Source of the DNA: a virus | Taxonomy: Duplodnaviria; Caudoviricetes | DNA length: 64,000 bases | IMG/VR virus record: IMGVR_UViG_3300044954_000337 | Coordinates: 1,179-65,178 of that record | Direction: 5' to 3' (one strand) | Part shown: one piece after another, positions 17,537 to 44,309 of the stretch | How the letters are laid out: each line of letters starts with the position of its first letter | Numbering within the stretch: the stretch's first letter is position 1 | Notes under the pieces: model-generated | Databases searched by the model: none | Told to the model about the DNA's origin: nothing | Seen by the model: only the letters and a program-made list of their open reading frames with translations | Translations under genes and position numbers: made by a program

Positions 17537-18718
17537 GTGTCCAATAACAACAAAAAAATAAAAGAAAACATAGGTGACTTTTCTGGGTCTCCTACGTTCC
17601 AGGGAAGTCCTTTTGGGTATGGAGGACCCAAGCAGCTTGCTGCCCCTACAAAGCCCCCTGAGGACTTTGAACGGATTATAGATGACCTAGTAGCCCAGGA
17701 ACTTGAAGACATTTCTGGAGGTCAGCCAGACATTTTTACAGAGAGAAATCAAGCAGACCAGTTCTACAGGGACCTTCCAGGATTTCCTGCAACCAATACG
17801 CTGGTTGCCAAACGGATGTTCGTACCAGATGACCCGGCAGAAAAAGACAATGTTGATCTTCTTGGTCCAACCGTGGGCGGAATCGCCATTAAGGATATCC
17901 CCGGAAATACTTCCAACAACTGGAAAGCAACCACCCCAGAAAAAAGAGGAAGACAAATAATCGACATAAATGCACTTGTCAAGGACTATGAACTTCCAGA
18001 AAGTATTAGCGTTCTTGGAAGGGGTGAGTGGGGCTCTCCCTGGAATCCTGCTCAGCTTGTTGCCAAAAGAGACTGGCAAGCAGAAATAGAGCAAAATAAG
18101 GACGGCGACATAAAAGCCAAAAATCCCGTGGGAGGAATGGGTATCACGGTGAGACCAATGGTTTTTGTTCCGAAGTCAGCCGAAAATCAAATAAATATTC
18201 AAAGGGAATCTTCTGCCTCTAAGGAAGTACTTAAACCAAGGAAAAATATACAAATGTCTACCAAAAATCTTGTTGAAACAATCAAAAAAATAATATTTGA
18301 GGAACTTTCTGAGGCAGAGGAACTTGGAACCATGCAAACCTCTCAAAATATTATAAAAGCAATGGAAGACCTGGCTATAAAGTATGGAGGAAAAGGTCTT
18401 GAGGACTATGACCGGTTAGTGCCGCAGGCAGAAAAGGACAAACTAATTCGTTTTGGCAATGCCTCAATGAAACTTTCTAGGTCTATCCACGGGTCCCCAG
18501 TTGTTAAACCGCAACCCGGTGGACCAAAACCCAGTGGACCAAATATTCAACAGTTGACTGCGAGAACTCAGGATCTTGCACGTAAGTACCAGTTACAGAA
18601 ACAACAGATGCAAAATTCTGGCGTGGTCGTCCTAGGAACCCTCGTGGAAAATATCTTGGCAGAAGTCTTGCAAGAAATAATAGACGAAAGAGCAAAAGAG
18701 AATGGCAAAAATAAATAA
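17537..18718 (+). CDS. putative virion/internal head protein with several acidic amphipathic motifs
   Basis: FERIIDDLVAQELE, LVETIKKIIFEELSE, LVENILAEVLQE; TAATTA 10 nt upstream. Confidence 0.65.
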   Translation: MSNNNKKIKENIGDFSGSPTFQGSPFGYGGPKQLAAPTKPPEDFERIIDDLVAQELEDISGGQPDIFTERNQADQFYRDLPGFPATNTLVAKRMFVPDDPAEKDNVDLLGPTVGGIAIKDIPGNTSNNWKATTPEKRGRQIIDINALVKDYELPESISVLGRGEWGSPWNPAQLVAKRDWQAEIEQNKDGDIKAKNPVGGMGITVRPMVFVPKSAENQINIQRESSASKEVLKPRKNIQMSTKNLVETIKKIIFEELSEAEELGTMQTSQNIIKAMEDLAIKYGGKGLEDYDRLVPQAEKDKLIRFGNASMKLSRSIHGSPVVKPQPGGPKPSGPNIQQLTARTQDLARKYQLQKQQMQNSGVVVLGTLVENILAEVLQEIIDERAKENGKNK

Positions 18719-20815: not shown

Positions 20816-20851
20816 TCTAGTTTAAACTACCTCTAGGTGGATTCTAAAAGG

Positions 20852-20885: not shown

Positions 20886-20911
20886 AGCACTATTTTGGCG
20901 AAATAGGTAAA

Positions 20912-21922: not shown

Positions 21923-21923
21923 C

Positions 21924-22874: not shown

Positions 22875-22925
22875 GAGCACAAATATTTATTGGGGCAAAC
22901 TGGAAGCGAGGAAGAGAAACGAGTT

Positions 22926-24008
22926 ATGTGCCAAACACCAGCCCAACTAAATACCGATCTTAAGGCCGCAACACAGGCCCAAGTTATCAGCCTTTCTGGA
23001 ATAAATCCAATAAATTGTCCAACGCTTGCAATGACGGGTTCATGGACAGGAGGAAAGTTGTTTTTCTCTGACTCCCCAGAGACTCCCACCTCAGCAGGAA
23101 AGCTTTATTTTGATACATCCGTCCCGGCTACAGTAGGAACAGATTATCACAGAATTTTTCTTTATCATGTAAATGGCAAAGCATCTGGAAAGATGAAGTT
23201 TTCTGCCATGATCAAAAATACCGGAACCGCTTCCGCTACACTCACTGTGCAGAAAATTGGTACATCAGGTCCAACCACTAGTTTTCTTTATGCGGGTAAG
23301 CTTGCCTATCAGAGATGGCTTGTGTCTACAGCGGGAACTCCAAGAACGGTAGCTCCCGGGGCTTGGATTAGAGTAGACACTTCATTTGATGCCCTTCAGG
23401 CAAGTCCCGGTAATCTCCTTCATGGAATTTGGGACTACAAAATGGACCAACCACACGAGGTTTTGATTGTTGCGCTAAACCAGAATGACGACCCAATTTC
23501 TGTCGGTCCTGGTCTTCCTCTCCTTGCTAGAGACACTCACGACAGAGGAACTTTTCCATTTTGTGACAAAGTTTATGACACCGATTCTGGCGTAACTTTT
23601 GACACAGCAGGAGATATTAAATCTTTCCCTATTGGCGGCGGAACAAGCCCAGATGACTTTGCCGTGGGTATGGATACTACCGACGGAACCCCAATGACTC
23701 TTGCTGGAAACTTTGGAGTGAATTACAAAATTCACGTAAATACGATTTCCACAGATGGTAAAAACATAGGAATTATGATAAACCCAAGAGGAGGACAGTG
23801 GGGTGGTGCTGTGTGGGCTATGGCCGGAGTGTTTCCAAGTGGAAAAATTCTTATTCCCCCAACCACAGCTTCTACCGGTGATAATACCAAGGGTGCAGTA
23901 GAAGGAAAATATGTTCCTGGCGCTGGACTTACTATTTGGGCGCAGTTTATGCCAACCGGCGGTTCTTCCTTTCCAGTCAGATGTGTTCTTGTCCCGTATA
24001 CTCCGTAG
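22926..24008 (+). CDS. beta-rich protein, putative virion/surface-binding
   Basis: LFFSDSPE...GKLY.D, RIFLYHVN, RGTF, GNFGV.Y, NPRGG; start placed at ATG 22926 (ORF track TTG 22890). Confidence 0.6.
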   Translation: MCQTPAQLNTDLKAATQAQVISLSGINPINCPTLAMTGSWTGGKLFFSDSPETPTSAGKLYFDTSVPATVGTDYHRIFLYHVNGKASGKMKFSAMIKNTGTASATLTVQKIGTSGPTTSFLYAGKLAYQRWLVSTAGTPRTVAPGAWIRVDTSFDALQASPGNLLHGIWDYKMDQPHEVLIVALNQNDDPISVGPGLPLLARDTHDRGTFPFCDKVYDTDSGVTFDTAGDIKSFPIGGGTSPDDFAVGMDTTDGTPMTLAGNFGVNYKIHVNTISTDGKNIGIMINPRGGQWGGAVWAMAGVFPSGKILIPPTTASTGDNTKGAVEGKYVPGAGLTIWAQFMPTGGSSFPVRCVLVPYTP

Positions 24009-24978: not shown

Positions 24979-25572
24979 ATGACTCTCCCTACACCGCCCT
25001 ATTTTTATGATGACTCTCGTCTAGTCTACGATGAGCATTGCTTCTTTTATGATGGCGGGTATGATGACGTATGCCTTAGTGCCCCAACTGCGGTCATAGT
25101 TCGTCGTGGTGGCAGGAAAAAACAATCTAAACCGTACCTCAATGTCTTCGTTCGTTGTTGCGTGTGCAAGGTAAACGGCGAAGAAATCCCCTGCAGTGAC
25201 CTTGAGGGGTGGACCAGATTTGCCGGGGAAGATGAACCTCTTACGGTTTTCATAAATGGCGTTGCCATAAACATGAAAACCCCCTATGCCTCCGGGTATT
25301 TAAAAGACCTGATTAACTCCAAAAATCAAGTGGACGGTGTAAACCTAAGTCTACAATTCCTTCAAAAAATTGAGGACGAAGGACCGGAGTGCGTAATTGA
25401 GCCGGAGTCCGACACAAATAATAACATAGACGTTAAAATAGTAGAACCCTGGCAAGACACACTTGAGGTAAAATGCGACCTAATACCAATCAGCATAGTT
25501 ACCTCCTCACTTAAGGTTGAGAGCAAAATAATTAACCCAGAAGAGATAGATAAGAAAAAAGACCGAAAATGA
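24979..25572 (+). CDS. hypothetical protein
   Basis: 197-aa ORF; TAGTTA 11 nt upstream. Confidence 0.7.
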   Translation: MTLPTPPYFYDDSRLVYDEHCFFYDGGYDDVCLSAPTAVIVRRGGRKKQSKPYLNVFVRCCVCKVNGEEIPCSDLEGWTRFAGEDEPLTVFINGVAINMKTPYASGYLKDLINSKNQVDGVNLSLQFLQKIEDEGPECVIEPESDTNNNIDVKIVEPWQDTLEVKCDLIPISIVTSSLKVESKIINPEEIDKKKDRK

Positions 25573-26174
25573 GTAAAATAACTTTAAAACTTGACGAGGC
25601 AAATGACTTAAATTTCCAATTTAAGGTCCAAGGTACCAGTTCAGAGCCAGGGGCAACGGCTCCTCAATTTAGGTTTGTGGTATTTGAAAAAGATAACCAA
25701 AAAGGGGTGGGGTATATATTCCCGGTAACGTCCAAGGAAGAAAACGGGACAATAACAGTATCAATGCCTGTCCTCAAGGACATTTTCCAAGAGAAAACTA
25801 CCTATATTGGAAAAGTAGAGGTTATTATCGGCACCAGGCTTCTGGTGCCAACAACCTTGGAACTTGAGTTCGTAAAATCCCTGACAATCGAAGTTACCCC
25901 AATCCTTCCAGAAGGGGAGGCAGAAGCCAAAGTAGACGACAGAAAGACTCCAGAAGAACTTTTGCCGGAACTTGAAGCCCTGGAAATGAAAGAAGTCTTA
26001 CCAGCAACAGTTGAAAATACCGGTGGCAAAAAGAAAATAACCCTAACAAAGTCCCAGCTTAATCAAATGATCCTGGAAAGGAAAAAGCAAAAGACTTTAA
26101 AGAATCCTCTAAAGGATTTAATGAAGTCTGCCCTAAAGGACGATGACGACACTGGAGATAAGGGAAATACCTAA
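25569..26174 (+). CDS. hypothetical protein
   Basis: 201-aa ORF, ATGA-coupled. Confidence 0.7.
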   Translation: MSKITLKLDEANDLNFQFKVQGTSSEPGATAPQFRFVVFEKDNQKGVGYIFPVTSKEENGTITVSMPVLKDIFQEKTTYIGKVEVIIGTRLLVPTTLELEFVKSLTIEVTPILPEGEAEAKVDDRKTPEELLPELEALEMKEVLPATVENTGGKKKITLTKSQLNQMILERKKQKTLKNPLKDLMKSALKDDDDTGDKGNT

Positions 26175-28918: not shown

Positions 28919-30034
28919 CTAAAGCTTTGTTTTGTTTAAGGCTTCCTCTACCATTATCTGGCACAGATTGTCAAGATAACGGTGATTTGGCTCCCGAGGC
29001 AAAGCCGTGGAAGTCTTATAAAGATCGTTTAATTCTTTTTCTTGCCGGTCAGACCACTCAATAAGTTGGTCATATGTCCAGATGCCGTTATTTTTGATGG
29101 CAAGAAGCTCCTCCCTGTCCTCAACGCGCTTTACAATAACCTTGCCGTCGGTCAGGATTTCCCGGCACATTTTCATTAGACGAACAAGGTGCGAGGCATG
29201 TTTTGTGTCATAGCCGAATTTTGCCTCAAGTTCAGCCCTCTTTGGGTTTCTTGTCTTGAGCCAGTTCTGGTACTGTTCCCACTCTGTCTGTTTTGCCTTG
29301 AAGGCGCGTTCCTTTTGAAGGAGAGCAAGGAAATTGTCATCCAATCCCAGGGAACGTCCTGTCCTAGTCCAAACATCATCCCCTGTTAGGTGCATTTCCT
29401 CAAAAAACTTAGAGATATTTCCCTGAAGGGAAATTCTGTCGGCCTCGTCCAACACAGACCAGTCGAAGTCGAAGGTTTCAATCTTTTTCTTAATTTCGGC
29501 CTCTACCGCCCCAAGTTGGTCCCTTGGAATGATGGTAAATTCAGGAAGGTCAAAGTCTTTCCTAAGCGGAGGAGTCTTTGGCGGATTAGAAAGCCACCTG
29601 TGGTGTGTCTGGATGCGCTTTAGCTCAGCGTGGGCATATCCAGAAAATGTATGCTTTGCCTTAAGCGACAGGAACTTGTCCTTGTTTTCGACAAGGAGTT
29701 TTCCGAGGGAAGAAACCCTAACCCACACACTTGGGTCGGTATGGAGAACTTCAATGATATTCGGGTTGCACTGTGCGGCTAGCTTGAAGAATTTTCTAAT
29801 TTCATAAACAACAAGGTCATAGGGAACTTTTCCTTCTGCCTGTTCAAAACCCTCAGAGTACCCAAGATACACATTTTTCGGGGCAATACAAACACCCTTT
29901 ACGTCAATGTCGGAAGTCTCGGTGTTGAGACCATACGCATGACTTCCATGCAACGTCGCAAAGATAGTTCTATCCGTAAGCCACTTTACGTTGCCATTGT
30001 ACATGATGTTGAAATCTAGAGTGGGGTGCGTCAT
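28919..30034 (-). CDS. RlaP/YcgL-like nucleotidyltransferase (Pol-beta superfamily)
   Basis: GSHAYGLNTETSDIDVKGV, NPNIIEVL, FSGYA, GYDTKHASHLVRL. Confidence 0.88.
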   Translation of the reverse strand: MTHPTLDFNIMYNGNVKWLTDRTIFATLHGSHAYGLNTETSDIDVKGVCIAPKNVYLGYSEGFEQAEGKVPYDLVVYEIRKFFKLAAQCNPNIIEVLHTDPSVWVRVSSLGKLLVENKDKFLSLKAKHTFSGYAHAELKRIQTHHRWLSNPPKTPPLRKDFDLPEFTIIPRDQLGAVEAEIKKKIETFDFDWSVLDEADRISLQGNISKFFEEMHLTGDDVWTRTGRSLGLDDNFLALLQKERAFKAKQTEWEQYQNWLKTRNPKRAELEAKFGYDTKHASHLVRLMKMCREILTDGKVIVKRVEDREELLAIKNNGIWTYDQLIEWSDRQEKELNDLYKTSTALPREPNHRYLDNLCQIMVEEALNKTKL

Positions 30035-31879: not shown

Positions 31880-32356
31880 ATGAAATATGTTCATTTTACA
31901 GATAACGAGGGCGCTAGGCAAATCCTAGACTCTGGAAACCTCCTAAAATCCTCTATAGTAGATGGCGTGTTCGCCGTGGCCGTGGGAGGCTCCTATGTGC
32001 CAGAAACGCAGCAGACCCGTCTAGGCCGCGCTAAAAATAGGAACGTGGCGGTGGTCTTTCAGACGCCAGAACTACCGGACGTTGCTTTCCCGGAAGAGGT
32101 TATTTGGCACCTAGAGAAAATACCCGTTTATAATGTAGAAATTATGCCGGCAGACCAGGCAAGAACTTTATTGGACGGCTCTATACCATCAAAATTTGGG
32201 GAAGGCGATGCCTTGGATATACCACTGCACCCTTCCATTGTGGACAAAAGAACCCTTGAAAGGGTAAGGCTTAAAAAAGAGTCTGTCTCTAGGTTTATTT
32301 CAGACCTACAGAATCAGGACAGGCTTAGAAAGCTCAAGACAAAAAATGTCAGGTAA
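31880..32356 (+). CDS. putative ADP-ribosyltransferase-fold protein
   Basis: YVHFTDNEGARQILDSGNL...GVFA...EEV resembles the HxT...I..SG.L strand/helix of ART-family toxins. Confidence 0.45.
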   Translation: MKYVHFTDNEGARQILDSGNLLKSSIVDGVFAVAVGGSYVPETQQTRLGRAKNRNVAVVFQTPELPDVAFPEEVIWHLEKIPVYNVEIMPADQARTLLDGSIPSKFGEGDALDIPLHPSIVDKRTLERVRLKKESVSRFISDLQNQDRLRKLKTKNVR

Positions 32357-33053
32357 ATGGCCCGGCCAGGGTACCATCTTCTATTTTTAGACCAAAGGCT
32401 CTAAGGGTCATTTCAAATTCCCCGGTTTGGTCTACCATTTCCAACATTTTTCTTGCAAGCTCCCTTATTTCTACCTGGGCGTGGGTAGAGTACCTGAGAG
32501 TCAGGAAATGATAAAAAGACCTGAAGTTGAACATTACGTCTGCCTGAAGTTGATTTCCATATGGCAAATATAATCTAGCAGATTCCTTTGCTCTTTTTTT
32601 ATCCATGCCCCTGGCAACTAAACGTTCTATGGTTGAATGATAAGAGCTTAGACTTTCTTCTAGGTGCTTAACATATAAAAGAACTTCTTCTTCTGGCCAA
32701 TCCTGCGGGACATAAAATTTGTTATCTTTCAACTCTTTATACCTGGCAGATTCTCCATTTACAGAGACGCCAATTCTATGTTTAATCAGGTGAATGTGGG
32801 AGGCGATGTCGGTAGTAACCAAAAAGTGAATGGCAGACTTCTCAAATGGAGTTCCATGTTGATTGCTTGCTAGCATCTTAAGAAGCTGTGGAATTCTTGC
32901 CGCTTTATCATCAGACAAATTTCTAGAGGTTGAGGTCCAGGCAGAACAAGCGTGAGTCTTATCCCCTCCGTAGGTACCTAAAAGCTCCACCTTGTTTTGA
33001 TGGAGTTCCTTATATATTTGTGCCATTTCCTTGTAATCAAATCCTTCACTCAT
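32349..33053 (-). CDS. thyX: FAD-dependent thymidylate synthase
   Basis: HGTPFE, KHR..VS.NGESARY, KESARLYLP, NFRS..HFLTLR, HAQVEIR. Confidence 0.93.
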   Translation of the reverse strand: MSEGFDYKEMAQIYKELHQNKVELLGTYGGDKTHACSAWTSTSRNLSDDKAARIPQLLKMLASNQHGTPFEKSAIHFLVTTDIASHIHLIKHRIGVSVNGESARYKELKDNKFYVPQDWPEEEVLLYVKHLEESLSSYHSTIERLVARGMDKKRAKESARLYLPYGNQLQADVMFNFRSFYHFLTLRYSTHAQVEIRELARKMLEMVDQTGEFEMTLRAFGLKIEDGTLAGPFT

Positions 33054-33726: not shown

Positions 33727-35388
33727 TCAAGACGCAACGCGATTTAAGGCAGCAGTTACAAAATCCCAGTTGTATTTATTGCCAATTCCAAAAAGTTTAT
33801 CTAAAAGTCTCTTTCGATTATAGATATCGTCTGGTTTCAGTCCGCTCATAAGAGTGTCAACTATATCTACCCAACTTCTACTACTGCTATTTTGAAATCC
33901 TTCTGGAATTCTACGTTCCAGCGAACGAATTAAATCTGGAATCTGCTGGAGATGCTCACGACCGCCGATTGGGTCGGCGGTATACCTCTCCAGAATTGCT
34001 TTCATTCTCTCTGGATAAAAAACAAGGGGTAATATATAATTGGGCCAGTAAATTTCTTCTTGGCGCGAGATGATAATTGTTGCCAAAACCTTTAAGGCGG
34101 ATTCCGTAAGGGCAAATGTACCAGGATTGATTTTATGAATTCGAATAACTTTTTCTGCCCAACCATGGTTGAAAATCTCTCTTCCCCGGTCAACAATCAT
34201 TCCTAGACCAATTCTAATTCTGCTATTTGCAAGTCTTATGTCGTCATTCGACCATCCGTCCCTAGGGACAGTTGCAAGATATTCAATTATTTTAAGTCCT
34301 TTCTCGGGGTTTTCTTTTATGGCGTTGTTAAAATAATCCCAGTTGAGTGCTGGTCTTGGGTCACGCTTGAGGTCTTCCATAGAAAAAACATTAAATGGAG
34401 CGATACCAATTGCTGGTTGCAAGAAATTATTTAATATGTCAAGAATTGGCTTTGGGTACTTTTCTTCTATGTAAATTTTTTTCTTTTCGTTATCTTGTGC
34501 GTCATATATCTCTATCTGCTCAATATCTCCAGCAAAGGCGATGGCATCTTTGTCTCCTGTTTTCTTGTTTATGACAAACAAGAATCTTGCACCTTTCTCG
34601 AAATATTCATCAAAATAGTTTTTAGATTGTGTAGCGGATATACACCACTGAGTTCCTTTTCCGTACACGCAAGAGGCTTCCTTGCTCCTTGGCTCTATTA
34701 TGAGATATTCTTGGTCCTCATAAATTTTTTCTGCAGTTTTTTCTGCCGCCTTTTGCTGTTGGGCTACCTCGGCTTCTGCCTCGGCTTTTTCTACCACGCG
34801 GAGAAGGCTATATAAATCTTTGTACTTTAAAATATCCTTGGAGTCTTGTGGGATTCTGTTGAGTTTTAACATCTTCTCAAATCTGTTGACAACCCCTAAT
34901 TCGCCTTCTGCTGTTTCGTTGGCATTATTACGAATGTAGTTAGCGTTTCTATAATCTTTATTATTGGGATAAGTTTTTGCCTTTATTTCCCAATCTACTG
35001 CCCATTCTTTTCCTCTTGCTGTAAGCCATGGCACATACTTTGGCAGTACATCTCCTTGTTTTAAAGTCTCCAAGAAAGCCGTAAGAAACACATCATCTTT
35101 CGCCGCCGCAATGGCTTGGTCTATCTTTCCCTCAAGAAGTCTAGTGGTTGACTCCCCAAGGCCCATTCTAGGCGGATCGTGGGAATATGGCTTTTTGTTA
35201 AGGTTCTTGGAAACCTTCTTCATCACAGACTTAGTTCTTTTCTTGTTGGGGTCATTCCTGTCCATGTACACGGCCCCACCACCAATCATGCCTCTTCTGA
35301 CAGACTTGGTAGCTTTTTTGTGACCCATGTCATCAAGAACATTTTCCACAAGGGCCTCAATAAGTTTTTTTATTGTCTCTGTCGCCAT
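33727..35388 (-). CDS. hypothetical protein with acidic leader and a central SC.YG.GT.WCI domain
   Basis: IKKLIEALVENVLDD leader; ASCVYGKGTQWCISA...NYFDEY. Confidence 0.75.
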   Translation of the reverse strand: MATETIKKLIEALVENVLDDMGHKKATKSVRRGMIGGGAVYMDRNDPNKKRTKSVMKKVSKNLNKKPYSHDPPRMGLGESTTRLLEGKIDQAIAAAKDDVFLTAFLETLKQGDVLPKYVPWLTARGKEWAVDWEIKAKTYPNNKDYRNANYIRNNANETAEGELGVVNRFEKMLKLNRIPQDSKDILKYKDLYSLLRVVEKAEAEAEVAQQQKAAEKTAEKIYEDQEYLIIEPRSKEASCVYGKGTQWCISATQSKNYFDEYFEKGARFLFVINKKTGDKDAIAFAGDIEQIEIYDAQDNEKKKIYIEEKYPKPILDILNNFLQPAIGIAPFNVFSMEDLKRDPRPALNWDYFNNAIKENPEKGLKIIEYLATVPRDGWSNDDIRLANSRIRIGLGMIVDRGREIFNHGWAEKVIRIHKINPGTFALTESALKVLATIIISRQEEIYWPNYILPLVFYPERMKAILERYTADPIGGREHLQQIPDLIRSLERRIPEGFQNSSSRSWVDIVDTLMSGLKPDDIYNRKRLLDKLFGIGNKYNWDFVTAALNRVAS

Positions 35389-35389
35389 A

Positions 35390-36220
35390 TTATACCCCTA
35401 TGTCAAGTGCCTTGATGTTTCCATTAGCATCCAAGCCCCAGTGATCTGCCCTATCTATGTCCATAACGTTGTGGTGAACCGCAAGAACAAAATATTTGTT
35501 CAGAAGTTCCTCCGCTTTTGGATTTGACTTGTAGATATTTAGAAGTTCCTCGGCTCTGGCGGCAGACCAAGCCACCTCGTCGCCCTTCATTTGCGAGATA
35601 GCAAGAAGAAACTCTCCGGCGACTTTATGGTTTTTTGCACCAAGCTCGCGTGTGTTTATCAGAGTATCAAATGTACCAAGGTTTCTCCTGGAAACGCCTG
35701 TTATATTTTTCATATTGGCATCTTGCCCCGGTCTATCAAATTGTTTTATTGGCTCTACCACAAACCACGAAGAATGATCTTTGTCATAATCATATATTGT
35801 TGGGACAAGTCCAGTTCCGGCTAAGTCTAGGGAACGATCTATTTCTTTCTTAAACTGACCGAATTCGTCAAATCCATACCTAGAAATTTTTAGAATCTTT
35901 CCAGAGGAAATAGCAAAAACATCTTTTGCGACTCCAAAACCAAGGTATGGGATGGCAAACTTGTTTACATAGTCCCACTGCTGTTCCACTGGAAGGGATT
36001 TAAACTTTCTCATGTTAAATCCTCTGAACATGGCTTCCGGCAAAACCTTCTTCTTCTTTCTAGGTTTATCCCCTGACCACATAACCCGGTGCTGTGGTGT
36101 CATATTAATTCCAAGAGGCTGACCTCCGGTTGCAGAAACCCCTCCGGCGCCTATGGCATTAAACTCGTCCAGTTCTTGCTGGACGAGTTCTTCAATCAAA
36201 TTTTTGAGATTAGTATTCAT
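35390..36220 (-). CDS. protein-kinase-like-fold protein with acidic leader
   Basis: LGFGVAKDVF (Gly loop), ILKIS (Lys), E, DIDRADHWG (catalytic loop), LDIG (DFG-like). Confidence 0.7.
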   Translation of the reverse strand: MNTNLKNLIEELVQQELDEFNAIGAGGVSATGGQPLGINMTPQHRVMWSGDKPRKKKKVLPEAMFRGFNMRKFKSLPVEQQWDYVNKFAIPYLGFGVAKDVFAISSGKILKISRYGFDEFGQFKKEIDRSLDLAGTGLVPTIYDYDKDHSSWFVVEPIKQFDRPGQDANMKNITGVSRRNLGTFDTLINTRELGAKNHKVAGEFLLAISQMKGDEVAWSAARAEELLNIYKSNPKAEELLNKYFVLAVHHNVMDIDRADHWGLDANGNIKALDIGV

Positions 36221-36842
36221 GGGTCATTCCTAAATCAACACAAACAAGTCTTCCACCAGCCGTTATTCCCCAGTGAGCCCAGTGGGTTACATCATCCATT
36301 CCACCCCTGGCAAGGTGAGCCATTTTTGCTATAAGTATCTTCCCTAGTTTTGTTGGTGAAACATCGGGAACCTCCCACGATTTTACTTTGTTGAATTCCC
36401 TGCTTAGGTTTTCTGGGGTGACTTCTGGGTGGGTCAAAAGAAAATGAAAGGCGCTTTCAAGCCAAGTTTCATTGAGTCCCGTGTCTGCCTCAAACTGCTC
36501 GGCAGACTGCCAGGTTGTGGCATGTTCGGAAATCATCCATGTAAAATACTCATCATGGTCATAAATGGCCGGGGCATACTTAGGTCCGAATTTCTTGAAA
36601 GCAGAAAACTCCTTGGAGTTCTGTTCTGCGTCCTTAGCTATTTTTATAACTTTCTCTGGGGAAAGAGCATAGGTGCATTTTGCCACACCACATCCCAGTC
36701 TAGGCAACCCAGTCTCCTTGGCGTAGGTCATTCTTTCTTTGTAACCGGGAAGTGCCCTGAAATGTTCCAGGTCAAAACCCGATAAAAATGCTTCCTCCAC
36801 AAGACGGTCAAGCATTTCCCTAAGGGAGACAGAGGCGTTCAT
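36210..36842 (-). CDS. protein-kinase-like-fold protein with acidic leader (paralog)
   Basis: LGCGVAKCTY, VIKIA, E, DDVTHWAHWG, VDLG. Confidence 0.7.
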   Translation of the reverse strand: MNASVSLREMLDRLVEEAFLSGFDLEHFRALPGYKERMTYAKETGLPRLGCGVAKCTYALSPEKVIKIAKDAEQNSKEFSAFKKFGPKYAPAIYDHDEYFTWMISEHATTWQSAEQFEADTGLNETWLESAFHFLLTHPEVTPENLSREFNKVKSWEVPDVSPTKLGKILIAKMAHLARGGMDDVTHWAHWGITAGGRLVCVDLGMTHEY

Positions 36843-36851
36843 GCCCTTTAA

Positions 36852-37529
36852 TTATACCGGCAAACCTCTGGCTTTCAGAATATTTTCAAGCTTTTGGATA
36901 GTGTCCTGTGGATTTTTGTGCAAAATGATGGTTCCGCCGTTTGCCTCAAACTTGGAGGTATACTTGGTGCGGTCATCAATCAAAATACTATTAGAGTTCG
37001 CGTAGTTATGCTTATCCTGGGTGCAAATAAAATCCGAAAACATCCCTTGGAAGTTTTTTTCTATCCACTGGCGTTTTTCTTCCTCGCACCTAGCAGGATC
37101 ATTGTCAATCGGGGCAGTAAGGACAACTGGCTTTTTACCCGTCATGGCTGCTATCCTCGAAACCATTTCCTGTGCTCCAGAAAGCACAGGGAGGCTCAGG
37201 AAAAATCCTTTTTGTCCTGCAACGGCAAATTTCTGCTCCCTGTATTTCTGCCAGGCTTTCTTCAGGGCTTTAAGTCCTGGGTCCGTCTGAGGGCCAGCAA
37301 GCCTTGCTTTGAGTTCATCATCCTGAAGGGTAGAAAACTCTGGAAACTTGCTAAGAAGCAAGTCGAAAGTCTGTTTAGTTTTATTGGAGCTTCCACCCGT
37401 TCTGTCTTGAACGCCTTGGTCGAATGCAGCAATCACACCGTCCATGTCTACGTAAACAGTCGGAGTATTTAAAACCCCAAGCTCAGCTTCTACTAGATTT
37501 TCTACAAATTCTCTTAAAATTTTAGTCAT
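36852..37529 (-). CDS. HAD-family 5'(3')-deoxyribonucleotidase (NT5C-like) with acidic leader
   Basis: VYVDMDGV, LTAP, EKRQW, K, LIDDR. Confidence 0.88.
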   Translation of the reverse strand: MTKILREFVENLVEAELGVLNTPTVYVDMDGVIAAFDQGVQDRTGGSSNKTKQTFDLLLSKFPEFSTLQDDELKARLAGPQTDPGLKALKKAWQKYREQKFAVAGQKGFFLSLPVLSGAQEMVSRIAAMTGKKPVVLTAPIDNDPARCEEEKRQWIEKNFQGMFSDFICTQDKHNYANSNSILIDDRTKYTSKFEANGGTIILHKNPQDTIQKLENILKARGLPV

Positions 37530-37556
37530 GTGCTACTTCTACTAGTAAGTAGCACA
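37529..37556 (-). promoter_or_regulatory. TACTTA motif within a 10-bp hairpin abutting the start codon
   Basis: tgtgctactt (37529-37538) / aagtagcaca (37547-37556); taagta at 37546-37551. Confidence 0.6.
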
Positions 37557-37591
37557 AAACTTTCGCATCTTCAACTTTCGCTACAATGCGA

Positions 37592-38488
37592 TCAAAAAAC
37601 AGACACCACAGGCGGCTCGGAAGCAAGAAGCCTTCTTATTACTTCCACGCTGCTATAAATGGTTATGTGAGAATGTGTAGCGTTTCTTCCGGCAAGAATA
37701 GCATTTGCAAGAGCAACTACTTCTCCTCTAGAATTTACTAGAGGTCCACCAGAACATCCAGGGGATGTGGCAACGTTTGTCTGAATAACACTTACCATGC
37801 CTGGGTCTGTTCTGTCATTTTGAATGAGCCCAGAAACTATGCCGCTTACGAAGTACCAAGGAACCCCAAGCGGGTGACCAACATGGAATACTTCGCTACC
37901 TATACTTGGGACTTCCTCTGCGAGTGGGACGTAAGCTACTGGGTTATAAAGATACCAGTTTTCTTCCCTTACCGTCAAAATAACCACGTCATTGTCCTCG
38001 TCCCACAAAATAACCTCTACCGGAACAGGGTTTCCGGTTACCTGCCCTTCGTGGGTGATACCACCACGATTAACAAACCATCCCCTGTTTCCAATTGGAT
38101 TTGGTCTGGTTGGAACCTGCAAGACAATCCCTGGTATAATTTCAACCAGCATTATCTCTTGAAAGCAGTGAGCGGCACTTATAATGTGAATCTCGTCCAC
38201 AAAAAACCCTGTGCAGTATGGACCTTGCCACTCTACCTCGGAAAGATTCTCAAGACCACTCTCTATGGTTTCTGTCGGCTCCACAAAGGCAACTGTGGCG
38301 TTTAAAAGTCTTTCTGTGTTTTCTTCTGACAGACTAATTCTGGAAACTGGTTCTTCCGGTCTTACAACCCTCTGTGCGCAGCTTACGCAACACATCAGAA
38401 TCATACCAGTTGCCATAAAAGTTCCTACGGCTGTCAAAAATTTAGATAAATTACTATTGTTTCCCCTTACAAAATTATGCGTTCCCAT
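37592..38488 (-). CDS. trypsin-like (S1) serine protease, probably exported or membrane-anchored
   Basis: CTGF, SAAHC, DV, GHPLG, GCSGGP; hydrophobic N-terminus ending VSC; GAGGAG SD before ATG 38488. Confidence 0.88.
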   Translation of the reverse strand: MGTHNFVRGNNSNLSKFLTAVGTFMATGMILMCCVSCAQRVVRPEEPVSRISLSEENTERLLNATVAFVEPTETIESGLENLSEVEWQGPYCTGFFVDEIHIISAAHCFQEIMLVEIIPGIVLQVPTRPNPIGNRGWFVNRGGITHEGQVTGNPVPVEVILWDEDNDVVILTVREENWYLYNPVAYVPLAEEVPSIGSEVFHVGHPLGVPWYFVSGIVSGLIQNDRTDPGMVSVIQTNVATSPGCSGGPLVNSRGEVVALANAILAGRNATHSHITIYSSVEVIRRLLASEPPVVSVF

Positions 38489-38544
38489 TCTCTCCTCGTG
38501 TCTCCCATGTGTCATAAATATGACATAACACGAAAATAAAAGAA

Positions 38545-39747
38545 TCAGGAAGTCATTCTTCTGAAAAGTTCTGTTTCCCGACGTTCCATTTCTGCTCCAA
38601 GTTCTTTACCTTGGAATCCCTGATTCTGAAGTTCCAATCCAGTTATGGATGGCTCATATCTCAAGAAGACTTTAACCAGGTGCTCTGGAGGATTACCTAC
38701 CAGTCTAGAAAATTCCTCTAAATCTTGAGAACTCAGCCGGGAGTTCTTAAAAAGCTTCTTCATTTTGTAAGCATTGGGTACATTTAATCCTAAAAATGCC
38801 GCTAAGAATGAAACTTGAGATACTTCATCTGCAGAATATTTTAGGTTATTGAGTTTCCCCATAATAACCTTGGGACTATTTTCTCTTAATAGGACAGCCA
38901 GGGCAACAGGGATATTTTTGGTATCCTTGAAATCCCTAGAAACAACCATTCCCGGGAAAATCTGTGGCCATAGGTCAAATTCTGATATCAAATTAAGGAA
39001 TTGCGGTACACTTTTGGCACTTTTAATACCCTTTAAGAATTCATCCCTAATTCTTTCCCCAGACACTCCATCCAGAGAGTTATTGGATTTAATGGCCTGA
39101 GCAGTCTCAGGATCCAGCCCAGAACCGATTCTAGCCGCGAACCGAATGGCACGTAAGATTCTCAGCCTGTCCTCGTCAAAGCGTTCCTGGGGGCTTCCAA
39201 CGGTCCTAATGACACCTTTTTCAATGTCTTCTATCCCGCCAACGTAGTCTATGATTTCTTGGGTCTCTATGTCATAAAAAAGGGCATTTATTCTGAGGTC
39301 TCTTCTTTGTTGGTCCTGCTCTATGGAACTAACAAAATTAACGGCATCTGGCCTACGTCCCTTTCCTACGTCAGTCCGAAGGGTGGCAATCTCAAATTCC
39401 CCTCCTTCTGGGGTAATAACCTTAACAACTCCAAAGGATTTACCAATTTCAAGGATTTTTAGGCTTGGGTCTTGTTTTAAAATATCAATCGTGTCATCTG
39501 GCTGAGCATCCGTGGCAACATCCAGGTCCTTGGGCTGCTTGCCCATGAGGGCGTCCCTTACAGAACCACCCACAAGCCAGAATCCTTTGTTATTTGCCTT
39601 GAACATCTTGGAGAGACGAAGAAGGTCGGGTGGCAAAGAAATTGGAAACTTTTTTCTGATAGGTGAGGTAGAATTTTCTATTTCTAGCAGAATATTCTCT
39701 ACCAAATATTCTACGTAACGTCGCAGATATTGATTTTTCATAGCCAT
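38545..39747 (-). CDS. cca: class II CCA-adding/poly(A) polymerase-family tRNA nucleotidyltransferase with acidic leader
   Basis: VGGSVRD, DLDVATD, EIATLR, RRDLRINA, EDRLRILRAIRF, SGERIRDE. Confidence 0.9.
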   Translation of the reverse strand: MAMKNQYLRRYVEYLVENILLEIENSTSPIRKKFPISLPPDLLRLSKMFKANNKGFWLVGGSVRDALMGKQPKDLDVATDAQPDDTIDILKQDPSLKILEIGKSFGVVKVITPEGGEFEIATLRTDVGKGRRPDAVNFVSSIEQDQQRRDLRINALFYDIETQEIIDYVGGIEDIEKGVIRTVGSPQERFDEDRLRILRAIRFAARIGSGLDPETAQAIKSNNSLDGVSGERIRDEFLKGIKSAKSVPQFLNLISEFDLWPQIFPGMVVSRDFKDTKNIPVALAVLLRENSPKVIMGKLNNLKYSADEVSQVSFLAAFLGLNVPNAYKMKKLFKNSRLSSQDLEEFSRLVGNPPEHLVKVFLRYEPSITGLELQNQGFQGKELGAEMERRETELFRRMTS

Positions 39748-39748
39748 A

Positions 39749-40660
39749 TCACGACATATTTTTTATCTGATTAAGTTTTTGTTGAAGTTCTTGTGGCGTT
39801 TTTGATTGATAAAGATCAAGGGCTTTTCTGTGCGCAGCGTACAAAATTTTCTTTGCCCTTGGATCTTGTGGATTATCATTTAAAGAAAAATTAGAAAAAC
39901 CTAATCCTTTTTCATGCGCAAAATCTGAAAGTATGCGATTTATAGCAAAGCGGTCTTCTTGGCTTCTTTTTTCTATTGGCTGACCGCTAGGTCCAAGTAT
40001 GATCGCAAAACGATAAGCTAATGATTTTTCTTTGTTATCGAAATTTTGAGCCCTTTGCCAAGCTGCCTGCAAAGCCTGGTGCGTGTCAATTCCCTTGAAA
40101 TTAATTTGCGACAAGGTACCAACCATAGACGTAATCAAGTTATTAACCAAAGTTTTCATTTGGTTTAATTTTGTAGCATCCATCTGTACCGAAAGTTGAT
40201 TAAGAATCAGCTGACTTATTTGTTCTGGGCTTACTTCAATGCCGGCAGTATTTGGGTTAAAGTCTTCCAAGCTTATCATAATGGCTATTCTCAAAATGGC
40301 TTCACCTATGTTGTATTTTTGAGCAATGCCAATATCCTTCATATTTAGAACGCCAGCCCTTTTTTCAAAATCTTGTACTTTGTCTCCAAGTGCCCTCCCT
40401 GCGGCAAAAAAAGAATTTAGCGCGTTTGAAAAAGTGGCGTAATCTTTTTCAGTAAATCCCAAAGCACTCATTTGTTTTTCGAAGTTTAAAATTAATGGGG
40501 TGACACGTTTCATTATTTCAGTTTTAAGCTGCTCGGTAGGCATCGCGTCCCAGTTTGGCTCTTTGCCTTTTCCAAAAAACATATCCAATAAGCCCTCATT
40601 TAAAGAATTTGGATATTTTTCCGGGTAAAGGAACGGTAATAATGATAAATTTCTAGACAT
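39749..40660 (-). CDS. hypothetical helical protein, putative virion
   Basis: N-terminal SLNEG; TACTTA 8 nt upstream. Confidence 0.7.
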   Translation of the reverse strand: MSRNLSLLPFLYPEKYPNSLNEGLLDMFFGKGKEPNWDAMPTEQLKTEIMKRVTPLILNFEKQMSALGFTEKDYATFSNALNSFFAAGRALGDKVQDFEKRAGVLNMKDIGIAQKYNIGEAILRIAIMISLEDFNPNTAGIEVSPEQISQLILNQLSVQMDATKLNQMKTLVNNLITSMVGTLSQINFKGIDTHQALQAAWQRAQNFDNKEKSLAYRFAIILGPSGQPIEKRSQEDRFAINRILSDFAHEKGLGFSNFSLNDNPQDPRAKKILYAAHRKALDLYQSKTPQELQQKLNQIKNMS

Positions 40661-41494: not shown

Positions 41495-41794
41495 CTACGG
41501 AATAGGAATTAACCGTAGGCATGGTTTTGAAAACCAACCGCCAACCCAAAATTTTATACCAGTTTTTGTATTTTGCAAGTGGAAACTAAAATTATTTTCC
41601 TCTAAAACATAATAAATTTCATCTAATCTGTATTCTGACTTAAAATTATTATTGTGGGCAAGCGAATAAAGCTTTAGTTCCCATGCTTTTTGGGTTATTT
41701 GAGCGATATCAATAAGTTCTTGTTTAGAATCTCCAAAAAAAATAGTGGAGCCTGTGAAATTATTGCAAATTCTATATTTTTGGAGGTTATCCAC
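41495..41794 (-). CDS. hypothetical protein
   Basis: AT-rich ORF; GTG start overlapping the RNR stop. Confidence 0.45.
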   Translation of the reverse strand: MDNLQKYRICNNFTGSTIFFGDSKQELIDIAQITQKAWELKLYSLAHNNNFKSEYRLDEIYYVLEENNFSFHLQNTKTGIKFWVGGWFSKPCLRLIPIP

Positions 41795-44309
41795 ATTTAC
41801 TGTGTCCGCAATTTTTGCACGAGACACATCCTTCTTGATAAATGAGATTGCCAGAGCCACAGGAGGGGCATTTCTTCTCTGATGCCTTTGTCCCATCCTG
41901 GATATACTCTTTCAGAACCCTGGACATGGCTCTTGAAAAAGAAAACAGGTCGTCATCCTTCTCGGAACCTTTTACAAGTTGTTCCACGACATACTGAACG
42001 GGCGTTCCATGCCTGAGGGCAAGAGAGATCGTTCTGGTAAAGGCTGCGTTTGTGGCGTTATCAAAAACTGCTGCAATGTCCTTTACAACCGTTTCATCCT
42101 CTGGAGACTTTTCGAAGTCATAGTGGAAGTCATATCTTGGAACAGGATTCTCCAAGCCGTTGTGCTTTACTATTTTTCCTACCTTGGCTCTTTTTGGAAT
42201 GGAGATGTATTTTGACAAGCCGCCCATTATTTCATAAGGTCTTTCCTCGTGGAGGCCAACGAAGAAAGTCCACTTCTCACCCTGAACGGTTGTATGAATA
42301 ACGTCACATCCAAGTTCTTTCGGTCTTTTGGGAGCATGATGGTCAAGAAATTTATTTTCTGCATCTTTTGTTCCCATTGTCTGAGAGTTTTCCGTAACCA
42401 GAACGCCAGTCCTGGAGCCGTCACGATAAATCGTGAATCCCTTGCAGCCAGATTCCCAGGCAGACATATAAATGTCACCAACAAGCTCCTTTGAGGCCGT
42501 ATTTGGTAGATTGCAAGTTTTGGAGATAGCATGACAAATATATTCCTGAGCGGCAGCTTGCAATTTTACCGAGGCTTTCCAGTCTACGTCATTTGCTCTT
42601 GACTTCCAGTAAGGAGATTCCTCTACCTTTGTTTTCCCGGTAATCTTCATCCATTTCTGGAACTGAGGATGATAAACCTCATACTCTTGCCACTTGTCTC
42701 CCAAGTCGTCCACAAAGTCCACACGGACATCTTTGTCACTTGACATTATCTTTCTACGACGCTTGTAGACAACCTCAAATGCTGGTTCAATGCCGGAGGT
42801 TGTTCTTGTCAGAATCGACACACTTCCTGCCGGTGCAGTTGTAGTAAGGGCGATATTTCTACGACCAAATTTCTTTAGTCTTTCCTTTAGAGCTTTATCG
42901 TGTTGAGCAATTTTGTTGATAAACGGGTGATCTTTTTCTTTCTCGTAGTCGTATGCCGGAAATGGTCCACGTTGCTCTGCCAGGCATGTAGTTTCCCAAT
43001 AGGCGTTATGCGCTAAAAGGCCATATATGCTATGAACAGTCTCTATGGACTCTGCCGAGCCATATCTTTGACCAAGTGCGGCAATGGTATCTCCAACAGC
43101 CGTTACGCCAAGTCCAGTTCTGCGACCTCTCTCACAAGAAACACGAATTCTCTTCCAGAGATCACTTTCTATTCGCTTTACGCTTTCTGGCTCTGGATCA
43201 TTTTTTATCTTCTCTATAATTTTGTCGATACACTCCAGTTCTAGGTCAATCATGTCGTCCATAAGACGCTGCGCCAATCTTACGGTGTTCCCATAACTTT
43301 TTCCATCAAATGTTGCCTTGTCTGTAAATGGATTTTCCACAAAGGACAACGTGTTGACGAGCATGAGTCGGCAACTATCATCCTTAGACAGAACTATTTC
43401 GGAACATGGATTTACACCAACGCTAGCAAACTCCTCATAGCAATCGCTAGGAGTATTTTTAAGAACAGTGTCCCAAAACAACAAACCTGGTTCAGCGCAA
43501 GCATGGGCACTATCAATTATTTGATCCCAAATCTGTTTAGCGGAAACCTTTTTGGATATTTCTGGTGTCTTGGAGTTTGTTGGCCACCTTAACTCAACCT
43601 GGTCATTTGCCTTGACCGCTTTCATAAATTCGTCCGTAAGACGAATAGAAATGTTGGCACCCGTTACTTTCTTAAGGTCTCTCTTGATGTTTATAAAGGT
43701 TTCAATTTCTGGATGATGAACAGAAATCGTCAACATTAGGGCGCCCCTTCTTCCAGAGCCTTGGGCGACCTCTCTGCACGAGTTCGAAAATCTTTCCATG
43801 AAGACGGCAATGCCATCCGTGGACTTGGCAGCATTTTTGGTAATTAAACCCTTCGGTCGAATATTAGAAATATCAAACCCAACACCAGCCCTTCTTTTCA
43901 TCAACTGAACTTGCTCTTGGTCGGTCTTGAGAATTCCTCCGTAGGAGTCATACGGGGGTTCAAGCGTGTAGCAATTGCTTAAGGTCATCACCTGATAAGG
44001 GTTTCCAATCCCTGCCATGGGGGAACCTTGTGGAACAATATACTTGAAGTCTTTCAGATAAGAATAAATCACCTCTTCAGAAACAGGGTTTGGATATTTT
44101 TTTTCTATCCTTGCAAATTCCTTTGCAAGCCTCTTGTGCATTTCATCGGGAGTAGGCTCCAAAACTTCACCCGTGGGTGTGGTAAGGGCATATTTGTCAA
44201 CATAAACTCCTGCCGCAAGAGCATCACCACCAAAGTATTCCGTTGATCTTTCTAGTGCTTCATTGTAATCTGTCATGTTTTTCTCTAAGTTGTTTTCGCG
44301 GTATATCAT
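41787..44309 (-). CDS. nrdJ: class II (adenosylcobalamin-dependent) ribonucleotide reductase
   Basis: LSNC, RRGA, NPCSE, SCRL, GLG, TTAPAGS, TSGIEP, ISKTCN, GCKG.TIYRDGSR, C-terminal TSCPD-like domain and Zn ribbon; no nrdB nearby. Confidence 0.9.
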   Translation of the reverse strand: MIYRENNLEKNMTDYNEALERSTEYFGGDALAAGVYVDKYALTTPTGEVLEPTPDEMHKRLAKEFARIEKKYPNPVSEEVIYSYLKDFKYIVPQGSPMAGIGNPYQVMTLSNCYTLEPPYDSYGGILKTDQEQVQLMKRRAGVGFDISNIRPKGLITKNAAKSTDGIAVFMERFSNSCREVAQGSGRRGALMLTISVHHPEIETFINIKRDLKKVTGANISIRLTDEFMKAVKANDQVELRWPTNSKTPEISKKVSAKQIWDQIIDSAHACAEPGLLFWDTVLKNTPSDCYEEFASVGVNPCSEIVLSKDDSCRLMLVNTLSFVENPFTDKATFDGKSYGNTVRLAQRLMDDMIDLELECIDKIIEKIKNDPEPESVKRIESDLWKRIRVSCERGRRTGLGVTAVGDTIAALGQRYGSAESIETVHSIYGLLAHNAYWETTCLAEQRGPFPAYDYEKEKDHPFINKIAQHDKALKERLKKFGRRNIALTTTAPAGSVSILTRTTSGIEPAFEVVYKRRRKIMSSDKDVRVDFVDDLGDKWQEYEVYHPQFQKWMKITGKTKVEESPYWKSRANDVDWKASVKLQAAAQEYICHAISKTCNLPNTASKELVGDIYMSAWESGCKGFTIYRDGSRTGVLVTENSQTMGTKDAENKFLDHHAPKRPKELGCDVIHTTVQGEKWTFFVGLHEERPYEIMGGLSKYISIPKRAKVGKIVKHNGLENPVPRYDFHYDFEKSPEDETVVKDIAAVFDNATNAAFTRTISLALRHGTPVQYVVEQLVKGSEKDDDLFSFSRAMSRVLKEYIQDGTKASEKKCPSCGSGNLIYQEGCVSCKNCGHSKCG

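Follow-up and report, generated by a model that had tools for sequence, protein, structure and literature searches.

What might be the role of a short N-terminal peptide shared by largely unrelated proteins that are encoded side by side in the genome of a giant phage? The question is raised by a 64,000-nucleotide stretch of DNA (hereafter, the window) that accounts for ~17% of the genome of an uncultured jumbo myophage of roughly 400 kb. Five adjoining minus-strand ORFs of the window carry this leader. Two of them encode protein-kinase-like paralogs, and the others a 553-aa protein, a CCA-adding enzyme and an NT5C/HAD nucleotidase. These ORFs, their neighbors and one further candidate are listed below, with bit scores from an HMM trained on 55 leaders from other contigs and none from the window.

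33727..35388, minus strand: 553-aa protein with no assigned function; leader at residues 5-21 (nt 35326-35376), 9.9 bits
35390..36220, minus strand: kinase-like protein 1 (276 aa); leader at residues 4-19 (nt 36164-36211), 11.1 bits
36210..36842, minus strand: kinase-like protein 2 (210 aa, phrog_4301); leader at residues 6-19 (nt 36786-36827), 10.3 bits
36852..37529, minus strand: NT5C/HAD 5'(3')-deoxyribonucleotidase (225 aa, Pfam PF06941); leader at residues 4-18 (nt 37476-37520), 10.7 bits
37592..38515, minus strand: trypsin-like serine protease with an N-terminal hydrophobic segment (Pfam Trypsin_2, 3.2e-20)
38545..39747, minus strand: CCA-adding enzyme/tRNA nucleotidyltransferase (400 aa); leader at residues 7-22 (nt 39682-39729) with a terminal L-L-E, 5.8 bits
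39749..40660, minus strand: 303-aa protein with no assigned function, co-oriented with the cluster, without the leader
17537..18718, plus strand: 393-aa low-complexity protein; leader-like segments lie internally, at approximately residues 45-61 and 366-382

The leader follows the pattern h-[KR]-x-h-h-[ED]-x-L-V-[EQ], located 4-8 residues past the Met, and is a genuine, specific feature of the five window proteins. A sequence-only reading had quoted these peptides as one short helix, and all of them are indeed found at the respective ORF starts. When the non-window HMM was run over all positions of the window's 74 ORFs, the five leaders came out on top, separated from everything else, with the runner-up position at 1.8 bits. 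A regular expression for the pattern matches 5 of the 74 ORFs and none of 500 residue shuffles, but this test is circular because the expression was fitted to the same five leaders. At the DNA level, the five leaders are encoded by differing codons, and thus selection acts on the peptide; a DNA-level repeat or a common 5' RNA element as the source of the leaders is ruled out. The leader is absent from DnaE, helicase, RecA, SSB, RNR, ThyX and dUTPase according to the same HMM, as the sequence-only reading had stated for all of these except SSB. The similar motifs that it had listed at 549-1130, 4301-5299, the SOD extension, 17537-18718, 18702-19112 and 63189-63551 are not supported by this HMM, scoring at most 1.8 bits. 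Among these, the two segments of the 393-aa protein reach 10.8 and 10.2 bits only with a model that includes the window leaders, compared with -0.9 and -2.0 bits with the independent one, so that this protein is a weak candidate only.

The five proteins had been assigned to four unrelated folds. What stands is three identified folds (kinase-like, HAD and Pol-beta nucleotidyltransferase) plus that of the 553-aa protein, given that kinase-like proteins 1 and 2 form one family, with invariant G52, K67, E78, H190 and D203 in their alignment. In kinase-like protein 1, the leader is followed by an inserted GAGGV..G.PLG..KKKK module (approximately residues 20-60) and then by the kinase-like domain. 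The AF2 model of kinase-like protein 2 (pLDDT 93) includes a helix at residues 3-20 (pLDDT 73-76) and yields 63 PDB matches at E<=1e-3 in a Foldseek search; those listed are all kinase-like (APH(2''), PRPK, OSR1, MEK1 and CK2; TM 0.3-0.43). With a modeled bilobal fold, a Gly-rich loop, the Lys, the helix-C Glu and a catalytic/DFG-like Asp, both proteins can be placed in the protein-kinase-like superfamily, with kinase activity predicted. In the nucleotidase, a short linker separates the leader from the DxDGV motif that begins at residue 28, and the model shows a helix at residues 3-17 followed by coil at 18-23. In both models, the leader is a separate helix (pLDDT 67-83, below the >91 of the domain). 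The Pfam PF01743 domain of the CCA-adding enzyme begins at residue 57. The 553-aa protein consists of the leader, a Gly-rich/basic stretch and a domain matching phrog_28193/phrog_17056. Neither this protein nor an 80-aa family could be assigned to a named family in Atlas, PHROG or Pfam, and a search for related loci with the 553-aa protein as the query produced no relative; the weak Atlas pointer to PcfJ (26% of a cluster, score 0.86) can be taken as a lead only.

Comparison with homologs, those of the CCA-adding enzyme and the nucleotidase coming from contigs of up to 471 kb, supports the leader as an N-terminal module that is portable among unrelated domains, as the sequence-only reading had proposed. 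The nucleotidase retains it in 26 of 29 homologs, and across 27 HAD orthologs, the hydrophobic positions 5, 8, 9, 12 and 13 are class-conserved at 96-100%, with an overall class conservation of 0.73 in the leader, 0.53 in the linker and 0.77 in the domain. In an iterated search with pooled 35-residue segments, matches were found in 45 of 2244 N-termini compared with 22 of 13566 internal segments, a 12-17-fold enrichment across iterations, and 33 of the 45 N-terminal matches begin at residue 3-5. The kinase-like family is very large (2847 representative clusters at E<=1e-3); among the 149 listed representatives, scored with a model whose training set excluded kinase leaders, 81 reach at least 3 bits and 55 at least 6 bits. 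In relatives, an ADP-ribosyltransferase (Arr-ms) and a kinase (Zeta_toxin/AAA_33) also bear the leader. The description of the leader as acidic does not generalize, inasmuch as relatives have leaders of the LREYIRELL type with Arg at the positions of the window's Glu. Cellular homologs were expected to lack the leader, and for the CCA-adding enzyme this is borne out: solved CCA/PAP chains align to the window enzyme only from residue 41-59, leaving the leader uncovered, and some close phage orthologs are leaderless as well.

Among 106 unique N-termini of CCA orthologs, the short extension is present in 75, no leader in 10 and a further N-domain in 21. At the leader/core boundary of the 75, [LIVM]xE with the Glu at the boundary is present in 74 and [LI]xE in 71, against a background of 9.9% and 6.6%, respectively, in 2860 windows; P3 is L59/I11/V4, at P2, 14 different residues occur, and P1 is invariably E. 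The ten leaderless orthologs begin 0-10 residues past the position of the junction Glu. In the kinase family, the junction motif is found in 90 of 113 sequences against a 23% background. The same motif, L/I-X-E, is the cleavage motif of T4 gp21 in the available part of PMC9026906. The conservation of the junction could also be structural because the helix itself repeats h-x-E, and [LIV]xE falls within this pattern.

The reading favored here, to which we assign a probability of about 0.5, is that the leader is a capsid-targeting propeptide analogous to the capsid-targeting sequence (CTS) of T4, which would load enzymes into the head and then be cleaved, the enzymes being co-injected. The leader helix would dock the tagged proteins on the scaffolding core while the prohead of this jumbo myophage, presumably one with a T4-type head, is being assembled; a gp21-family (S77) prohead protease would cut the leader off behind the Glu of its terminal [LI]-x-E; and the mature enzymes would stay inside the head and enter the host along with the DNA. 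The docking, cleavage, packaging and injection of the tagged proteins are all inferred from sequence. In the window, the candidate cargo comprises the two small protein-kinase-like enzymes, the NT5C nucleotidase, the CCA-adding enzyme and the 553-aa protein, to which relatives would add the Arr-type ADP-ribosyltransferase and the zeta-toxin-like kinase. SOD, which the sequence-only reading had counted in the payload, finds no support as cargo. The CCA-adding enzyme and the nucleotidase would also serve free in the cytoplasm, which counts against packaging. A single co-folding run of the 792-aa scaffold candidate of a 320-kb relative (G006) with a 60-residue leader module, made without alignments or controls, gave a score of 0.00, which speaks neither for nor against binding.

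The argument from head and protease rests on G006 and not on the window's own genes: neither the window nor its 65-kb contig (a fragment, 17% complete) encodes a head gene or an S77 protease. Collinearity with the window extends over 39.5-100 kb of G006 (45-85% protein identity), and directly past the point that matches the window's end, G006 encodes an S77 prohead protease (93 bits), together with a portal, a major capsid protein and two sheath proteins. The head module of the lineage is T4-like (portal phrog_213, MCP phrog_138), and T4-like contigs with related leaders also encode the S77 protease and a T4-type head. The virion-gene block of G006 holds two leader-bearing kinase paralogs, the ADP-ribosyltransferase and a 345-aa protein adjoining the portal. 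At the threshold of at least 3 bits, leaders are found in 6 of 38 ORFs of this block against 9 of 478 elsewhere (Fisher p = 3e-4), where the block limits were set post hoc, after the data had been seen, and the enrichment weakens to p = 0.03-0.14 at stricter cut-offs. The T4-like contig G001 has ~8 leader genes, none of them in the head module. The genes around the window cluster, on the same strand, serve nucleotide metabolism and replication; the T4-type late promoter TATAAATA has two matches in the window and none at the cluster, and inspection of the intergenic gaps of the cluster revealed no common motif and no late-promoter signal.

The CTS of T4, present on IPI, IPII, IPIII and the Alt propeptide and removed by gp21, belongs to an internal-protein system that, together with this prohead protease, is described in the available parts of PMC9026906 and PMC3012670. 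As far as sequence analysis can tell, the leader resembles the CTS in being a short peptide at the extreme N-terminus of proteins with unrelated mature parts and in ending with L/I-X-Glu at the boundary, and differs from it in sequence. To judge by G006, the two lineages would further share the T4-type head with a gp21-family protease. Other common points are the location of leader genes outside the head module, as with ipI-III, and host-modifying enzymes as cargo or candidate cargo, T4 Alt being an ADP-ribosyltransferase and G006 encoding a leader-tagged Arr-type one. The leader is longer, at 14-17 residues compared with the 10 of the T4 CTS (bioRxiv 10.1101/2021.01.19.427310, in its available part), and unlike the CTS, it is found, as known here from sequence, on full-size metabolic enzymes (the CCA-adding enzyme and NT5C) and a very large kinase-like family. 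None of the leader profiles recognizes the CTS: IPI, IPII and IPIII rank 53-154 among the 251 T4 ORF N-termini of the first 150 kb, and the top core proteins, gp24 and Alt, score only 2.7-2.8 bits. Model it3 places gp24, Alt, gp68 and gp22 in the top 28 of the 251, at no more than 2.8 bits, a post hoc observation given no weight. No homology between the leader and the T4 CTS was thus detected, and the link to T4 is an analogy. Of the T4-like basis proposed in the sequence-only reading, the sequence evidence supports the protease and head type, shown in G006, and the [LI]-x-Glu junction. An alignment of MCP N-termini with T4 gp23 was dropped as evidence: L-R-E after ENQ is kept in three capsid proteins but lies off L-T-E65 of T4, which we take to be the gp23 cleavage site. 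The gp23 cleavage position was not found in PMC9958956.

Two other kinds of system invite comparison. Phages phiKZ, 201phi2-1 and SPN3US are jumbo phages in which, according to the available part of PMC9026906, propeptides of head and ejection proteins are cut after Glu by gp21-related proteases (gp175/gp245). They thus resemble this lineage in having such a Glu-cutting protease, and they have many processed internal proteins. The cleavage motif in these phages is S/A-X-E, unlike the [LI]-x-E of the leader, the same part of that source describes no single common leader, and the head module here is T4-like rather than phiKZ-like. Encapsulation peptides of bacterial microcompartments (BMC) and cargo-loading peptides of encapsulins are short, terminal amphipathic helices that, together with a flexible linker, target unrelated enzymes to a protein shell. 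The leader resembles these in form, being a helix with a linker on unrelated enzymes. Unlike what is proposed for the leader, such peptides are not known to be proteolytically removed, and the BMC shell gene (PF00936) is absent from the three records searched (G000, G006 and G001), with the E. coli and Synechococcus controls positive.

The most serious competing explanation, although an unlikely one, is that the leader is an uncleaved docking helix for a non-capsid partner, either a nucleotide-metabolism, replication or RNA-repair hub or a compartment or condensate made by the phage in the infected cell. The gene neighborhoods fit such a hub, given that RNR, helicase and ThyX genes adjoin both the window cluster and, in T4-like contigs, the genes of small proteins with the leader; the same direction is suggested by the head module of G001, devoid of leader genes, by the lack of signs of late expression in the promoters and gaps of the window cluster, and by the analogy with microcompartment peptides. 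Yet DnaE, helicase, RecA, SSB, RNR, ThyX and dUTPase lack the leader, the BMC shell gene is missing from the three records, and no candidate hub was identified. A docking helix would also leave unexplained both the [LI]xE at the junction and the leaderless orthologs that start right after it, and would not account for the leader genes in the virion block of G006.

Still less probable is a role for the helix on each protein separately, as an oligomerization or solubility helix, an autoinhibitory segment or a signal for regulated proteolysis, spread by recombination. A potential ClpXP pathway could be at hand, with a ClpP homolog encoded at 16193-16882 of the window and also in G006; the helix is so widespread in the kinase-like family as to look like a part of it, and its moderate model confidence does not indicate disorder. 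Against such a role stand the unrelated folds, on which one pattern of 14-17 residues recurs at a constant offset from the Met, and the close CCA and HAD orthologs that, judging by their sequences, function without the leader; moreover, a ClpX tag is not known to need 14 or more conserved residues. A compositional or chance similarity, whereby AT-rich, Lys/Glu/Leu-rich 5' coding ends would favor translation initiation, is disfavored and highly improbable. K, E, L, I and N abound in the leaders, and no Shine-Dalgarno sequence is evident upstream, but the shuffles fail to reproduce the pattern, the profile from other contigs cleanly parts the five from every other ORF start of the window, and the hydrophobic positions are kept at fixed spacing in orthologs down to 42% identity.

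The capsid-loading reading can be extended, with less than even confidence, to a broad uncultured clade of marine jumbo and T4-like phages in which one modular N-terminal tag would load a large, enzyme-rich arsenal into the capsid for co-injection. This arsenal would include thousands of small protein kinases as well as ADP-ribosyltransferases and zeta-like kinases, together with a nucleotidase and a CCA enzyme for tRNA repair. Were the leader indeed a tag for capsid loading, it would provide a sequence key for listing the proteins that travel with the DNA of uncultured giant phages, and under the broad extension, injected effectors could be read straight from metagenomes by the tag alone. The T4 'internal protein' idea, so far covering a few small anti-restriction proteins, would be widened to include full enzymes; kinases, ADP-ribosyltransferases and enzymes of tRNA repair and nucleotide hydrolysis could act in the first seconds of infection; and a longer natural targeting peptide would become available for engineered cargo delivery by phage capsids. 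Should the tag instead dock enzymes to another hub, it would represent a new organizing principle of jumbo-phage infection.

Among cultured phages, the cluster region has no match by blastn, and tblastn gave none for kinase-like protein 1, the 80-aa family, a G001 cargo or a 161-aa leader protein; the searches found homologs only in XacN1, Xoo-sp13 and RaK2-like phages, and these homologs are distant and leaderless. Within the cluster, the trypsin-like protease (37592..38515) lacks the leader; it is present in L002, and no homolog was found in G006. This protease is probably exported and is given no part in the leader system.

Five adjacent minus-strand ORFs of the window indeed have, as the sequence-only reading stated, a common start, h-[KR]-x-h-h-[ED]-x-L-V-[EQ], located 4-8 residues past the Met:

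33727-35388, minus strand, 553-aa protein
35390-36220, minus strand, kinase 1
36210-36842, minus strand, kinase 2
36852-37529, minus strand, NT5C/HAD nucleotidase
38545-39747, minus strand, CCA-adding enzyme

A regular expression fitted to these leaders matches exactly these 5 of the 74 ORFs and 0 of 500 shuffles, which is a circular test. In the profile check that had been proposed, an independent HMM, trained on 55 leaders that all come from contigs other than the window's, assigns the five leaders 11.1, 10.7, 10.3, 9.9 and 5.8 bits, and the runner-up at any position in all 74 ORFs scores 1.8 bits. The further sightings that had been listed (549-1130, 4301-5299, the SOD extension, 17537-18718, 18702-19112 and 63189-63551) are all missed by this profile; two segments of 17537-18718 reach 10-11 bits only with a model that includes the window's own leaders. 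Codon usage differs among the five leaders, which rules out a DNA repeat or an RNA element.

The leader-bearing proteins (candidate cargo) had been described as spanning four unrelated folds. The two kinases are paralogues, and therefore the set comprises three identified folds plus the 553-aa protein, for which no family was found, PcfJ being only a weak Atlas lead. The AlphaFold2 model of kinase 2 (pLDDT 93) has 63 Foldseek matches at E<=1e-3, with low TM-scores (0.3-0.43), and those listed are all protein-kinase-like (APH(2''), PRPK, OSR1, MEK1, CK2). With 2847 representative clusters at E<=1e-3, the kinase-like family is very large; some of its members in the representative library, P0153 (923 aa), P0156, P0160 and P0164, are long and contain 3-5 tandem kinase-profile matches. 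The trypsin-like protease encoded inside the cluster (37592-38515) starts with a hydrophobic segment and lacks the leader. A perfect 9-bp inverted repeat (37530-37556, minus strand; GTGCTACTT, 8 nt, AAGTAGCAC) lies directly upstream of the HAD start codon, ending at the ATG, in the 62-nt gap, the sole one within the cluster of leader genes, and may act as a terminator or as a translational hairpin.

The leader most plausibly represents a capsid-loading propeptide similar to the capsid targeting sequence (CTS) of T4 internal proteins, the best-supported mechanism, with a probability of about 0.5. That the leader is an effect of composition is highly improbable, and an intrinsic or regulatory helix is unlikely as well. 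An iterated profile over pooled N-terminal and internal 35-residue segments of 2,327 ORFs from the window and related contigs matches 45 of 2244 N-termini vs 22 of 13566 internal segments, with 12-17-fold N-terminal enrichment in every iteration, and the leader starts at residue 3-5 in 33 of the 45. Column conservation in the HAD leader (0.73) is close to that of the enzyme (0.77), both exceeding the linker (0.53), and hydrophobic positions 5, 8, 9, 12 and 13 show 96-100% class conservation; the leader is kept in 26 of 29 HAD homologues, with identities as low as 42%, and the linker after it varies in length; in three distant, shorter homologues the leader is shortened or absent. Among 106 unique CCA N-termini (from the best 120 of 4523 homologue matches), 75 carry the short extension, 10 lack a leader, and the other 21 possess an additional domain at the N-terminus. 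In the suggested comparison with cellular homologues, made with 16 solved chains of cellular CCA/poly(A) polymerases, the alignments do not begin before residue 41-59 of the query. In the kinase-like family, 81 of the 149 N-termini listed score at least 3 bits and 55 at least 6 bits with a model trained without kinase leaders. In marine T4-like contigs, related leaders of the LREYIRELL type, with Arg replacing the window's Glu, head clusters of unrelated genes; the leaders of relatives are also found on an Arr-type ADP-ribosyltransferase and a zeta-toxin-like kinase.

The main rival to the capsid-loading propeptide, a docking helix for another partner, is clearly less probable, if more likely than an intrinsic helix; the leader/core junction and the genomic setting bear on this choice. 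With CCA orthologues aligned on the catalytic GGxVRD motif, and bearing in mind that orthologues are non-independent samples and that h-x-E is also the repeat of the helix itself, [LIVM]-x-E with Glu at the boundary is present in 74 of 75 leader-bearing orthologues and [LI]-x-E in 71 (backgrounds 9.9% and 6.6%, 2860 windows), and in the kinase family the motif directly precedes the domain in 90 of 113 vs 23% background. At the CCA junction, P3 is L (59), I (11) or V (4), P2 varies among 14 different residues, and Glu occupies P1 in all; the leaderless orthologues (n=10) start 0-10 residues past this Glu. The motif is the L/I-X-E specificity reported for the T4 prohead protease gp21 (PMC9026906).

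Judging from the gene content of a relative, the head of the window's lineage is probably of the T4 type. This relative, G006, is a 320,479-bp contig (estimated 81% complete) identified in a search that used the tape-measure protein as anchor; its 39.5-100 kb stretch is collinear with the window, most proteins showing 45-85% identity. Just beyond the position that corresponds to the window's end, G006 has genes for two sheath proteins, a major capsid protein (phrog_138), scaffold-like acidic proteins, a prohead protease of the S77/gp21 family (93 bits) and a portal. No S77 gene was found in the window's own contig, a fragment; of five marine T4-like contigs that have the RNR in common with it, four also carry S77. 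Leader-bearing ORFs of G006 include two kinase paralogues (between neck and sheath genes), the ADP-ribosyltransferase and a 345-aa protein adjoining the portal. Leaders of at least 3 bits occur in 6 of 38 ORFs of its virion block vs 9 of 478 elsewhere (p = 3e-4, with block limits set post hoc; p = 0.03-0.14 at stricter cut-offs). In G001, a T4-like contig with related leaders, 0 of about 8 leader genes are inside the head module; the T4 ip genes are likewise located outside it.

The CTS of the T4 internal proteins is 10 residues long; it binds the scaffolding core, gp21 cleaves it, and on its own it is enough for packaging foreign proteins (PMC3012670, PMC9026906 and bioRxiv 10.1101/2021.01.19.427310). 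The leader resembles it in being N-terminal and amphipathic, in closing with [LI]-x-E and in being attached to unrelated proteins; it occurs in a phage whose collinear relative G006 encodes a gp21-type protease. Among N-termini of ORFs translated from the first 150 kb of NC_000866, three leader profiles placed IPI-III at ranks 53-154 of 251, with a T4 maximum of 2.8 bits; therefore, the resemblance is one of kind, and homology is not demonstrable. Visual comparison of the marine leader M-K-L-L-R-E-Y-I-R-E with the CTS shows Glu6, an aromatic residue at 7, Ile8 and Glu10 in both, a likeness at noise level in the profile test. Literature searches, covering listings and passages of the three sources cited above, found no leader of this sort described for uncultured phages.

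A family of ~80-aa proteins in marine T4-like contigs (related loci L035:5191-5439, L047:2294-2545, L062:2880-3173, L023:4099-4341 and ~20 further RNR-linked ones), with no name in Pfam, PHROG or Atlas, consists of the leader, an acidic spacer with L-[GTVI]-E-P-D, GGVxGxxxPLGxG and a Lys-rich tail. The same GG..PLG..KKKK module lies between leader and kinase domain in kinase 1 (window 36040-36165, residues ~20-60) and terminates larger proteins (L037, 604 aa; L014, 495 aa; L027, 444 aa). Two relatives, at L111:13587-14237 (G006 73587-74237) and L002:9370-10167, combine the leader module of kinase 1 with the 553-aa protein's leader in a single short ORF, from which the kinase domain and the bulk of the 553-aa protein are missing; the leaders are retained and their cargo is gone. 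A small head-module protein (L114:6424-6903, G006 126424-126903; also G003 206407-206880), whose gene lies directly downstream of that for the prohead protease, on the side of the scaffold-like gene, has in both contigs a leader-like N-terminus, ..ECL.E[IL].[NS]EG, below the leader-profile threshold; the G006 version ends in ..AAFGGKKR, like some members of the 80-aa family.

The window covers 64 kb of one virus record of 65,178 bp, with an estimated completeness of 17%, and encodes phage replication and nucleotide-metabolism genes among others:

8754-12500, DnaE
32349-33053, ThyX
41787-44309, class II-type RNR
window, ATP-dependent DNA ligase, DnaB-like helicase, FEN, dUTPase, RecA/UvsX and SSB
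28919-30034, 7544-8104 and 38545-39747, RNA-repair set: RlaP-family nucleotidyltransferase, tRNA-ligase CPD-like phosphodiesterase and CCA-adding enzyme
16193-16882, ClpP homologue
5296-6249, Fe/Mn SOD with an N-terminal extension of ~70 residues
window, patatin
window, tail genes including a 1526-aa tape-measure-like protein

A search for tRNA genes in the window found none. The phage-encoded ClpP and SOD are both kept in G006. A plus-strand gene block (19745-24008 and 24979-26174), one member of which has a tail-fibre-like N-terminus, lacks a counterpart in G006, where the flanking patatin gene and those at 17537-19661 are conserved; the block is probably a variable host-recognition cassette. 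The best G006 match of a GIY-YIG/NUMOD3 homing-endonuclease-like gene (14764-15291) lies elsewhere, within the head region (120765-121439), as expected of a mobile gene.
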